A DNA stretch of 64,000 nt from Eledone cirrhosa (Eukaryota): the NCBI GenBank assembly GCA_964016885.1, contig OZ024741.1:28024001-28088000 (forward strand), given 5' to 3'. The position numbers were made by a program, and so were the translations under genes. The notes below the pieces were generated by a model. That model searched no databases, was not told where the DNA came from, and worked only from the letters and a program-made list of their open reading frames with translations. Below are positions 51,933 to 55,569 of the stretch, piece after piece. How positions within the stretch are numbered: position 1 is the stretch's first letter; every line of letters begins with the position of its first letter.

Positions 51933-52028
51933 AGCCCGACGGCTGAGATCAAGCCGTTTCGACGGCTAATTCTGGACTAAATGAAAATTTTAATCCTGGT
52001 ATTTGAATAGCCGAGCTTCTCAAGGGGT
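51933..52028 (-). ncRNA. Type I hammerhead ribozyme, U3:A8 core variant (3' pLTR)
   Basis: Minus strand: ACCCC UUGAGAA G..CGGCUAUUC...GAAUUAGCCGUC GAAA CGGCU..AGCCGU C GGGCU. Confidence 0.72.
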
Positions 52029-52718
52029 AATTCCATATATGGTCAAAGTGATTGTCACAGGGATTGGTCAAAAGTTTGTAGTTGAGACATAATAATTCTA
52101 TGATGGCAATTAGTGGAGGGAAGGGGTAGCTAAACCTGCCAGTAGGAGAAAGAGGGATAGGGGGTGGAGGAGACCCATTCATGCGTTGATAGTGCCGGCT
52201 ACAGCTGGGCGTGAGGTCAAAGAAGATACTAGGGAGGGGGAGGGGGAGGAAGTCGAAACAGTAAGTAGAACAATGAGAGGCAAATATATAGAAAAATACT
52301 GAGAGTGTTAAAAAGCAATTAAATGTAAAAAAAAACAAAACAATTTCTGGTTACTATGACCTAAGTCTCTCACTATTGCTAGGCTAAAGAAATATACTAG
52401 GTGGGACGGAATTAAAATGAGACCCTTTTAAGAGGTATAAGTAATAAACCGAGTATATCTTACGGTGACGGGTCAACAAGTGAGGGGCCAAAATACTAAA
52501 GAGACTACCACGAAATAATAAAAGTTTCTACCCCAGGCAAAAGGCCAGCAATCACCCAGTGCAAAAAAGTAAACTAATACGAAATAATAATTCAGAGTCC
52601 CGAAAAAGAATACTAATACTATCTCTAAGGGTGCCGCCACGATACAAAAGTTCTAGTGCAAGCTACATAAAAGCTCGTACGAAGTATATGTAATATTTGA
52701 TACGGAAAATTAATTCAG

Positions 52719-52749
<31 letters not shown>

Positions 52750-53171
52750 AAAAAAATAAATACTGATAAACGAGAAATTAAAGCAAAGATGCCACTAAGA
52801 AATATAGAAAGCACGGAAAAGGGGCAGCGGTCGGATAAGAGGGCAAGTATCCGGGGTCTAACACATCTGCTATAAAAAGCGGAGTCGGCCAAGTCTATCA
52901 TAGAATAGGGGAAGGGGGTGGGGGTACTGAGGCTACAAAGGACCGAGGGGCTGCCTCGGACGGGCGAGAAAAAGACGACGACAAAGAAAAAGAACTGGGG
53001 TGGAAGGACTAGGGAGGGATGGGCGAAGAAGGAAATATAGAGGAAGCGATAAAAAGATATAAAAGATCTTACGTTTCCCTTAGCAAGCAATGGTTAGCCA
53101 TTACAAAATCGGCAAGTGGGGTGTTATAGCCCTAGTCTACCCCCCGGGTCATTATGGGGTTTGAGAGCGAG

Positions 53172-55288
53172 CTAAGTCCTACGCAATCTGTGTTTACATG
53201 CAGTAACCAGTTCATCTTTCTTGTTTAGGAGTTGGTCCGTCGAAAACAGCATTTGTAAAGTTTCCTCCGAGCATAAATTGCACGGACGGCGTCCTCCCGT
53301 GTAAGAGTTGGCTCTGGACAGTAATCTCCAAGTGAGATCATAGGTAATGTTGTTATCCTTGAGGTCCCATATGTGGCCCGAAAGTGTAGTGGCGTGACGC
53401 CGGGCCGGGTTTCGGAAGGTATGTCTGTGTTGGTATAGCCGGGCCTTGAAGTCACATGCGGTTAATCCTATATAAGCTTTGTTGGAGGTGTCCGTCCTCA
53501 CGTTGGACTGGTAGATCACATTACGATCTCTGCATCTGTTGTCGAGGGGGCAAATGGATCCATCAGGACAGTTGCACCTCCTGGTCAGCTCTCCACTACT
53601 ATTTAGGTCATTTCTTCCATCGGGGTTGAGTTTTTTGTTGTTGGAGGAGACGATGTTTTGTGAAAAGTTTGGTGTAGTGCTGTAAGAGAGTTTGATGGTA
53701 TTTTTGTTAATTATGTTGTGGTAGCGGTGTTGTAGTGGGAAGTGTTTTTCAATGAGCCTAAAGAATATTTTCCCGATAGGAGTTGTCACCTCGGCGTTGT
53801 GGGGAGGATTGAACCATGTTACATTGCGTGAGCGGCGGTGTCGCCTGCTGGTTCCGCTAATGGGAGCTGGACAGTAGGATATTTCCTCCCGGAAACCACT
53901 CCGCTTGAGGGCCTGGTTGTAATAAGGCGCATGTTCATCGAATATCTGCTCATTAGCTGACAAACGCATATACGGAGGGAGATGTTTTTAACCAGGTTAT
54001 TGGTGATGTTCCTAGGATGGTTTGATCGGCGGTGGAAGTAGTGCAGGTTGTCATTAGGTTTCCTGTATGGGTAGTAGAGGTCATTATCGAGGTCGAGGGT
54101 AACGTCCAGGAAGTTTACTCGGGTCAGGGCCGTTTGTAGGGTTATTTTAAATCCCCAGTCGCGGAAGAAGCTGATTAATTGTTTACGGACCCGATCTGTA
54201 CTACTGGGGTTGTACCCTTTAAGGGTAAGGAGCCCATCATCACGGTACAATCCACCGCCGAATGCAGGAAACATATCGGTGAGTTTGGCTATTAGGAATA
54301 ATCCTATAAGATCTGTGACCTCCGCCGAATCCGACGCGCCTAAGCTGACGTCGAAGGGTGAGTCGGGAGCTCTTTTTATCCATTTGGAGTTGTCGAAGAG
54401 TAAGACTGTCTTCCTGGCGTGGAGGATGATGTTTCTTTCCTGGTCGGTGATGGGCACAAGTGCTTCGGCGAAGTCCAAGGCAGCCGTAAGTAGCGGTAAG
54501 GTGATTGAAGCACAGTAACTCTCTATGTCAAACTGGATGAATTTAGTTTCTCGTTTATCCTCCATATTGCTGAACCAGGAGATTACTTCCTGGGTGTTGA
54601 CCCATAGGCTAAGTCGGGCATGTTGCTTAACTTTTGGTATAACGCGGTCTAGGATTTTTTTGCTGATTCTCCCTATGTCGGACTTCGTTGGGTTTATAAG
54701 CCCGATAGAAGGTTTACGGTCGAAATCGGATTTGTGATCCTTCAGTGTGAAGTAGGGTGTCCGTGGGTCTAGGGGTTCCGTGCGGTCGGCGACCCCGAGG
54801 CTGGAGGTAATTTGTTGTCCATCTCGATTTATGTCCTCGATGCATGAGTGGTTAGCCTTTTTATAGGTGGAGTTTAGGCTGCTCCTGATCAGTGTGTGGT
54901 ATCTGTCGGGGTTGACAAAGTAGAGGTTCCCAGTTTTATCCGAGTGCACCATGATGTCATTGGTGTTATCATACTCTGTTAAGTTGCTACGGAGTTTTTG
55001 TAGGAATCGGTTGTGTCTGGGTTTGAATTTAATGTTCTTGACCAGTTGGAAAACGTCATTCTCGAAGGGTGAGAGCATACGGTTCGGAGGGGGAGATTTG
55101 TAGGTAATAAATCCGAATCTCTCCTTGGTACCGAAGTCCTGATTGTCGCAATATCTGTCGTAGAAAAAAGTTCTCCATCTAAGTCTTTTCGCAAATAGAT
55201 CGATTTTTTGCGTGAGCATCCGAAGGTAAAATATTTTCGGTGGGACTGGGATGTTCTTGGTAGAGAAGTCGATGTTGCGTTTTCGCAT
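53172..55288 (-). CDS. Penelope-like RT + GIY-YIG endonuclease (~705 aa, single frameshift near 53970)
   Basis: ATG 55288 MRKRNIDFSTKNIP, RLRWR, HSDKTGN, LKDHK, QFDIESY, LGASDSAE, GLYRDDGL, FLDV, WFNPP, CNCPDGSICPL, VIYQS..AYIGLT, FKARLYQH, CNLCSEE. Confidence 0.9.
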
Positions 55289-55473
55289 GGTGCGGGTGAA
55301 AGAACTTGAGCTTAGCGGAAAAGTCTGGATACGGCGTGGTAGGGTCGGAAAGTGCTCTACTACGGGAATAGGAGCTAGATAACGGAAGAAATGTGGTAAG
55401 GAACCAGGTGGACCATAACGCACCAAAGTACTCAATACTTAGGGTAGTAGAGTGGGTAATAGGAACGAGTAGG

Positions 55474-55569
55474 ACCCCGACGGTTGAGCTCAAGCCGTTT
55501 CGACGGCTAATTCTGGACTAAATGAAAATTTTAATCCTGGTATTTGAATAGCCGAGCTTCTCAAGGGGT
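55474..55569 (-). ncRNA. Type I hammerhead ribozyme, U3:A8 core variant (5' pLTR)
   Basis: Minus strand: ACCCC UUGAGAA G-CU-CGGCUAUUC...GAAUUAGCCG-U-C GAAA CGG cuugagcucaa CCGU C GGGGU; GUC cleavage triplet. Confidence 0.78.

Follow-up and report, generated by a model that had tools for sequence, protein, structure and literature searches.

Which RNA does a Penelope-like retrotransposon copy when its coding region lies between two predicted self-cleaving ribozymes? The role of the hammerheads in Penelope-like elements, as well as the copying of RNA circles, are stated open questions (PMC8557442; PMC11167929), and both are raised by a 64,000-nt stretch (hereafter, the window) of the 3.0-Gb assembly of the animal Eledone cirrhosa (GCA_964016885.1, contig OZ024741.1, positions 28,024,001 to 28,088,000). 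The original prediction for this locus was that two U3:A8-variant hammerheads release an uncapped, possibly circularisable mRNA of ~3.54 kb that contains the whole open reading frame (ORF). Here, we describe the element, the state of its ribozymes across the family, and the positions at which the family's copies begin and end, and we weigh the RNA templates that could account for them.

The element and its two hammerheads

By its sequence features, the window element belongs to the Hydra-type Penelope retrotransposons and is a decayed copy, with a predicted hammerhead in each of its two repeats. It adjoins the 3' end of a second Hydra-like family (family B), and the layout is as follows:

51832..51917: (TA)n target microsatellite
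51918..52876, minus strand: downstream pseudo-LTR (pLTR; 3' UTR), ending at the +20 site
51933..52028, minus strand: downstream hammerhead (U3 at 52023, A8 at 52018, predicted cut 51938/51937), with a mismatch in stem I and a broken loop palindrome
53172..55288, minus strand: ORF for a Hydra-clade reverse transcriptase (RT) and GIY-YIG nuclease, disrupted by two lesions, a 1-nt frameshift (near 53967) and a premature stop (53174-53172)
55376..55458, minus strand: 83-nt "tail" between the two points at which insertions end 3' (+20 = 55459, +103 = 55376)
55459..56412, minus strand: upstream pLTR (5'-truncated second pass of the unit), identical to 52876-51918 at 930 of 961 positions
55462..55575, minus strand: upstream type I hammerhead with extended stem I (U3 at 55564, A8 at 55559, predicted cut 55479/55478)
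56416..56660, minus strand: 3' end of family B
56507-56467, minus strand: minimal hammerhead of family B, reading UUGAGUA in the window copy (the family core is UUGAGAA)

The pLTRs are direct repeats with 96.8% identity, and the copy differs by 2.7 to 5.4% from the seven relatives compared. Given its frameshift, premature stop, and damaged downstream ribozyme, the copy is dead, and it is not especially young. The original prediction had counted a single frameshift and suggested a recent copy; the premature stop makes two ORF lesions, and a distance of at least 2.7% from each of the seven relatives, together with the divergence of the repeats, argues against recency. The deletion near 53967 is shared by none of the relatives listed, and contigs from four runs (one study) carry the family allele at this site, a result that would be the same for a real deletion and for an assembly error.

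The first in-frame ATG lies at 55288, 190 nt beyond the upstream cut, and a natural intact copy encodes a single ORF of 717 aa, in which alignment places the RT ahead of a C-terminal GIY-YIG nuclease. Although nothing in Pfam matched either ORF fragment from the window, a protein search recovered 2,052 relatives at E<=1e-30 among 8,000 scored, with 38 to 54% identity among the matches listed. The ORF contains the motifs RWR, SDKT, CNCPDGSIC, CNLC, and CKH and has no CCHH motif; the published marks of the Hydra clade are RWK, DKT, a CxCx5C linker, CxxC and CxH around E and N, and no CCHH (PMC8557442). On these motifs, matched by eye to the published alignment, the element is placed within the Hydra clade of Penelope-like elements, which bears out the Penelope-like ORF of the original prediction. 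The marks of EN+ Penelope-like elements are also present, namely, partial tandem repeats (the pLTRs), inverted 5'-truncated copies, and a tail. Two other assignments were rejected: the Naiad/Chlamys clade has an N-terminal nuclease, whereas the nuclease is C-terminal here, and a non-LTR retrozyme, built of short noncoding tandem units that each contain a whole ribozyme, does not fit a coding unit of 3.5 kb whose short copies are without the 5' half of the ribozyme.

Published Hydra elements (Craig et al. 2021, PMC8557442; e.g., Hydra-1_Obim) share with the window element the RT-GIY-YIG ORF, the RW(K/R), DKT, and CxCx5C motifs, the lack of CCHH, the hammerhead in the 3' repeat, and targeting of (TA)n; all sampled insertions of the window family, likewise, lie within or next to (TA)n or comparable simple repeats. 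The hammerheads in File S2 of that paper, however, all have a CUGA core, a short loop II, and a tiny stem III, whereas the window lineage has U3:A8, and the clade's tail is usually 30 to 40 bp, versus 83 nt in this lineage, whose unit is 3.5 kb. Three full-length relatives from a metagenome scan (37% identity, one shared motif) have the canonical CUGAGGA core. Within the open-access texts searched, nothing relevant on octopus Penelope elements with a ribozyme came up beyond this Hydra paper (PMC8557442).

In both repeats, the minus strand reads ACCCC-UUGAGAA-stem II-GAAA-stem III-GUC-stem I, with C17 at 55479 and 51938, a spacing of 3,541 nt; the predicted core, GUC triplet, spacing, and ATG position were, thus, all confirmed. 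A type I descriptor run on the element returned two matches on the sense strand and none on the antisense strand, and none of 500 dinucleotide shuffles had any match; at E<=1, no hammerhead model in Rfam matched. The ribozyme of this family has a loop II of ~35 nt, a stem III of 5 to 6 bp, and a palindromic loop (GAGCUC); the palindrome has been retained even though the length of stem III would suffice for a monomer. Stem I extends beyond the limits first quoted, with GGAAU (55575-55571) pairing with GUUCC (55466-55462). Both motifs do bracket the ORF as predicted, but they are not equivalent: in the downstream ribozyme, stem I (GGGCU) contains a C.C mismatch and the loop reads GAUCUC in place of the palindrome. 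In stem III of the upstream ribozyme, an A replaces the G of the family.

Neither window copy has the hammerhead as its lowest-energy predicted fold, and all three hammerhead stems form in just 0.4% and 0% of their sampled structures; for a copy from the youngest subfamily, the hammerhead is the lowest-energy predicted fold (71% of sampled structures). A competing hairpin (AGCCGU-CGAA-ACGGCU), which hides the GAAA, dominates the predicted fold of the window copy. As a selected switch, this hairpin is not supported: its covariation score was reached by 27 of 500 shuffles, and in 16 of 40 rows the change affects a single side. Also ruled out, by eye, was an inner second hammerhead cutting at -40, whose stem III partner is absent.

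The 3-8 core pair across the family

Among the 4,252 copies of the ribozyme 5' half in the window family, about three quarters keep both U3 and A8, as the original prediction would have it; 1,014 depart from it, having an unpaired C3·A8, and these constitute a subfamily with shared variants and full-length members. G8 occurs in 17 of the 4,252 copies, and C3:G8 in only 2. The older subfamilies, counted by hand over 92 family rows (among 100 listed of 415, with 8 nonfamily rows excluded), contain 70 copies with U3:A8, 11 with U3:G8, 6 with C3:G8, none with C3:A8, and 5 with other states; one further old copy with C3·A8 was met outside this count. Position 7 varies freely (G, U, A, or C). The combination expected of a type I hammerhead, a 3-8 pair with a free position 7, is present in the window copy and lacking in the C3·A8 subfamily, although note that C.A+ is isosteric with U.G.

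Covariation was scored on an alignment of 40 hand-picked copies, in which three rows are misaligned at position 3, undercounting C:G. In it, 89.5% of 877 cells are paired and 44 cells are changed on both sides, and neither value was reached in any of 500 shuffles. Two further measures, one counting pairs and the other counting types, did not rise above the shuffles (424/500 and 494/500), so the support comes from few events, namely, three stem II pairs and the 3-8 pair. Compensatory changes are confined to stem II and the 3-8 pair, with stems I and III varying on one side only. Because related subfamilies have C3:G8, U3:G8, and U3:A8 along with compensatory changes in stem II, we regard the type I hammerhead fold, on this comparative evidence, as real in the family, and the view that U3:A8 is a compensatory swap gains from both the subfamily core states and the covariation.

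The series of core states is suggestive of a change from C:G to U:A by way of a U:G wobble. Its direction is taken from the canonical cores in published Hydra elements, in the three metagenome relatives, and in other repeats of the window; in a tree of the ribozyme region (66 of 169 rows, midpoint root), C3:G8 rows group with neighboring U3:G8 rows, which does not fix the direction of change. The swap itself has been described before: in Schistosoma mansoni, about 1,300 hammerheads associated with Penelope elements have U3-A8 (PMC4209133), and natural U3-A8 has been reported elsewhere, with its in vitro activity cited (PMC3088659). A search of open-access texts for the swap in hammerheads returned a single paper.

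End points of the copies

The 3' half of the ribozyme, taken as an exact 32-mer, occurs 27,345 times, versus 4,252 times for the 5' half. Sister subfamilies add a further 11,408 and 3,528 of the 3' halves, and the same step between the two halves is visible in the read depth of four DNA-like runs from a single study. Of 80 short copies with the 3' half (sampled consecutively from the beginning of contig 1 only), 68 stop 34 to 48 nt upstream of the cut, with a mode at -40. The same interval accounts for 40 of 49 copies in a sister subfamily (mode -40/-41) and for ~100 of 132 partner arms (1 of the 132 ends at the cut), and the 5' peak in an older subfamily group lies at -40 to -42, with more scatter. 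Not one of 33 ORF-linked junctions, in contrast, stops in this interval (68/80 versus 0/33; Fisher p of about 1e-18), these copies having been selected with an ORF query that excluded the ribozyme and the full-length sample being the 40 best-scoring of 4,339 candidates; ORF-linked C3·A8 copies also run past -41. Family B, with its minimal ribozyme, has no 5' hot spot in 30 loci examined by eye. Copies that bear the tail and start at the cut number ~4 (by eye) among 100 listed of 15,664 and, with the single partner arm, offer a weak, after-the-fact hint of a minor cut RNA.

The sequence at the boundary resembles a promoter, and the relevant features of the window are:

55516..55521, minus strand: initiator-like TTAGTC inside loop II, with the A at 55519 (-41 from the cut) as the 5' boundary of most short copies
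55543..55550, minus strand: TATA-like box TATTCAAA, of putative function, its first T 31 nt upstream of the initiator-like A
49180..49323, minus strand: short 144-nt copy of the same family, from -41 to +103, inserted in (TA)n, as an example of the run-off class

The stop-site sequence T(T/C)AGT(C/T)C is kept across subfamilies in which most of loop II differs, and the 5' peak falls at -40 to -42 in three subfamily groups with differing loop II sequences but a common TTAGT. The initiator consensus is TCA(G/T)T(C/T), which the stop-site sequence matches, and we infer that the A at 55519 is a putative transcription start. The TATA-like box, which reads TATTTAAA and TATTTATT in sister subfamilies, begins 29 to 31 nt upstream of the initiator-like A in the younger subfamilies, a distance judged by the usual TATA spacing rule. 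Its absence from older subfamilies, and the lack of any downstream promoter element seen by eye at +28, speak against an internal start. A precedent exists in the Penelope element of Drosophila virilis, whose repeat contains an internal promoter with an initiator (PMC2377424).

At the other end, 130 insertion 3' termini (excluding a few rows close to the ends of loci and 28 junctions linked to the ORF) fall at +103 in 66 cases, at +20 in 51, elsewhere in 13, and at the cut in none. An independent sample gave 46 at +103, 32 at +20, and 2 elsewhere, and 42 of 45 inverted pairs have one arm ending at each of the two positions. Since 3' ends lie at +20 and +103 and none at the cut, the template was continuous across the cut site, and the two positions probably represent two sites at which reverse transcription starts.

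The upstream repeats are from 62 to over 2,500 nt long and have subfamily variants in common with their partners, and one locus contains more than two units. Repeat partners differ by a median of 2 of ~205 letters, versus ~10 between copies. This distance is hardly below that to the nearest other copy (median of 2 versus 3), so the matching repeats are indicative of homogenisation and not of a circle.

Templates for full-length copies

The reading that we favor, to which we assign a probability of roughly 0.4, is that transcription of the main RNA begins within loop II of the upstream ribozyme, at an initiator, and that a circular 3.54-kb RNA is the source of the full-length copies. A capped RNA with its 5' end at -41 would be without the upstream core, and so unable to cut its own 5' end in cis, and would serve as the mRNA. 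Reverse transcriptase starting at +20 and +103 would run off at -41, yielding tens of thousands of copies of 60 and 144 nt. The sole complete core, the downstream one, would cut the 3' end and could also pair with and cut the identical upstream site, an action that the GAGCUC palindrome may help. The doubly cut unit would then be ligated (RtcB-type ligation has been reported for retrozyme RNAs; PMC7229834), and reverse transcription round the circle would give more-than-unit copies with matching repeats and no stop at -41. The long copies would need a template without an end at -41, of which a circle is the simplest. When cofolded without constraints, the cut downstream ribozyme and the -41 end adopt a predicted cleavage-ready fold (-50.5 kcal/mol, versus -32.6 kcal/mol for the two alone), a result that is partly trivial because the cut ribozyme has already lost its stem I partner. 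The fullest form of this scheme, in which the promoter lies inside the element's own ribozyme, the single core of the capped mRNA cuts both ends (5' double-hammerhead-like) to make the circular full-length template, and ~40,000 run-off copies stop at the cap while long copies never do, is unlikely to be right in every part.

Several observations touch on the circle itself. A circle combined with a pause at the folded ribozyme would also fit the absent second-pass stop, since the second pass would run over RNA already paired with cDNA. The C3·A8 subfamily made 1,014 of the 4,252 copies, and, if its core is inactive, ribozyme-made circles are not required. The second-pass result may also reflect survivor bias among processive enzymes. 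In the green anole element, ribozyme mutations had no effect on in vitro insertion, and no RNA reads ended at the cut (PMC11167929).

A template of uncut read-through RNA from tandem arrays is a possible, though rather unlikely, alternative, under which the stop at -41 would reflect pausing, or blockage by a protein, where the ribozyme is folded. Cleavage would then have a secondary role, in the turnover of RNA or in forming 3' ends, or would come from a passenger motif, and each transposition could do without it. This alternative would accommodate the C3·A8 subfamily (only two copies in the family read C3:G8, which gives no sign of rescue), as well as the arrays of more than two units, and the inner hairpin that spans -37 to -44 in the younger subfamilies could provide the pause; unprocessed RNA was, moreover, the main in vitro substrate of the anole element (PMC11167929). 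Yet a ribozyme folded on linear RNA should block the second pass too, where 0 of 33 copies stop, the boundary stays at the same letter despite different loop II hairpins, and the older subfamilies kept the 3-8 pair through three states. An LTR-like strand transfer would dispense with the circle differently: the RNA would start at -41, the downstream ribozyme would make its 3' end by one sufficient cut in cis, and the run-off cDNA would jump to the 41-nt terminal repeat. This fits the -41 boundary, the reading through the cut site, and the matching repeats, but the enzyme would meet the same 5' end after a full pass, so that many full-length copies should stop at -41, and none of the 33 does; we consider it improbable.

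Least probable of all is the scheme first proposed, in which both ribozymes cut in cis and the uncapped, optionally circularised 3,541-nt RNA is the mRNA. Its geometry fits, the few copies (and one partner arm) that start at the cut would suit it, if after the fact, and self-cleavage can drive cap-independent translation in viral UTRs (PMC13725137). The main recorded 5' end, however, lies inside the upstream ribozyme, copies that extend across the cut site cannot come from a linear RNA cleaved at both ends, and the ribozymes of the window copy are predicted to misfold. The circle in that scheme is plausible; its uncapped mRNA is less likely, the dominant 5' boundary recorded by the copies lying ~41 nt upstream of the cut. 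Back-junction reads, suggested there as a check, cannot reveal circularity because a religated junction matches the uncut repeat letter for letter.

The combination of U3:A8 with circularisation is not new, as both are present in PMC4209133, where double cleavage, ligation, and more-than-unit reverse transcription were proposed (Cervera & de la Pena 2014). The Cercyon elements of S. mansoni in that paper share U3-A8 in Penelope repeats and paired ribozymes ~3 kb apart around an ORF; their ribozymes are minimal and need a dimer, unlike those of the window lineage, and the text considered here describes no end mapping, ordered C:G/U:G/U:A series, or start site inside a ribozyme, although its figures may include similar ribozymes (PMC4209133). 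Poseidon-Ac of the green anole (Frangieh et al. 2024, PMC11167929) shares two internal RT start sites, which lie downstream of the cut and define the tail, and AT-rich targets. It belongs to a different clade, with a canonical core and an ORF that starts inside the ribozyme; its cleavage is protein-assisted and insertion proceeds without need of cleavage, an unprocessed tandem RNA is favored as the template, and the word "circular" does not occur in the main text (PMC11167929).

In LTR retroelements, minus-strand strong-stop DNA is a short cDNA, primed close to the 5' end of the RNA and extended as far as the cap, which can transfer by way of a terminal repeat. The run-off proposed here is similar, without any claim of membership; the primer in the window family is cut genomic DNA, so the run-off products were integrated in bulk. 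Open-access searches found nothing relevant on Penelope-like elements with strong-stop products, and the combination of Penelope-like elements, circular RNA, start site, and hammerhead returned, in the texts covered, nothing relevant beyond two plant retrozyme papers.

The U3:A8 swap itself and the dead copy in the window are ordinary; what is of interest is the family's record of end points. In this one genome, searches restricted to CUGANGA overlook copies by the tens of thousands, belonging to at least two families. The natural C:G, U:G, U:A, and C.A variants of one core pair would suit a direct activity series, and young intact copies, with the ribozyme as their predicted best fold, add to the family's value. 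The -41 boundary, at which most first-pass copies stop but none of the second-pass copies sampled, gives a sharp handle on the circle question, which the end-point record makes directly testable.

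Tail of the main element and palindromic mini-insertions

Numbered from the predicted ribozyme cut of the main Penelope-like element, the 3′ end points of insertions lie at +20 (55459) and +103 (55376), and most short copies have their 5′ boundary, a putative transcription start, at -41 (55519).

55417-55376 (-): upstream ATG in the tail, out of frame, with an ORF of 13 codons
5458-5677 and 23865-24073: mini-insertions, each a palindrome of two head-to-head arms

At 55466-55459 (-), the +20 end point falls immediately past the 3′ strand of extended stem I, a strand that, judged by eye, varies jointly with its partner among sister subfamilies. 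The stop of the tail ORF adjoins the +103 end point, and its ATG is also present in those older subfamilies that were seen. In each mini-insertion, one arm runs from -41 to +103 and the other from -41 to +20. Although MITE-like in appearance, the insertions are attributed to a sister subfamily as products of run-off, the proposed reverse transcription that starts at +20 or +103 and ends at the RNA 5′ end.

Other mobile elements and hammerheads in the window

9011-10257, 16580-19811 and 40904-41248: three further decayed Hydra-like elements
22363 (-) and ~27811 (+): type I hammerhead motifs with the canonical CUGAUGA
47388-48602 (-): fragment of a LINE-type reverse transcriptase (Pfam RVT_1, E 5e-19)
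50418-51614: nested repeats of 230 nt (direct), 238 nt and 103 nt (both inverted)
58175-59846 (+): broken RT and GIY-YIG element, Penelope-like of a different type

The element at 16580-19811 is split by another RT-coding insertion (~17740-18620), and the motif at ~27811 sits at the 3′ terminus of a different Hydra-like element, which has ORF remnants at 24735-26781. The nested repeats, immediately downstream of the main element, are probably another mobile element. The element at 58175-59846 has CCHH-like spacing and a weak GIY-YIG Pfam match, and is followed by 71-nt tandem repeats.

Family B and copies elsewhere in the genome

56416-56660 (-), with loci L031-L050 and L269-L298: family B, a second Hydra-like family, also with the UUGAGAA core

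A family B 31-mer is matched exactly 893 times; the ribozyme is minimal, with a 4-bp stem II, a variable loop and the palindrome ACGUACGU. In copy L199, the 5′ half of the ribozyme matches the older subfamily (U3:G8) and the 3′ half a younger one, possibly marking a recombinant or an intermediate. Locus L080 (G000:C2:51274953-51284900) is a tandem array of more than two units that are nearly identical to each other; it holds two intact 784-codon frames and is the candidate locus of choice for expression tests.
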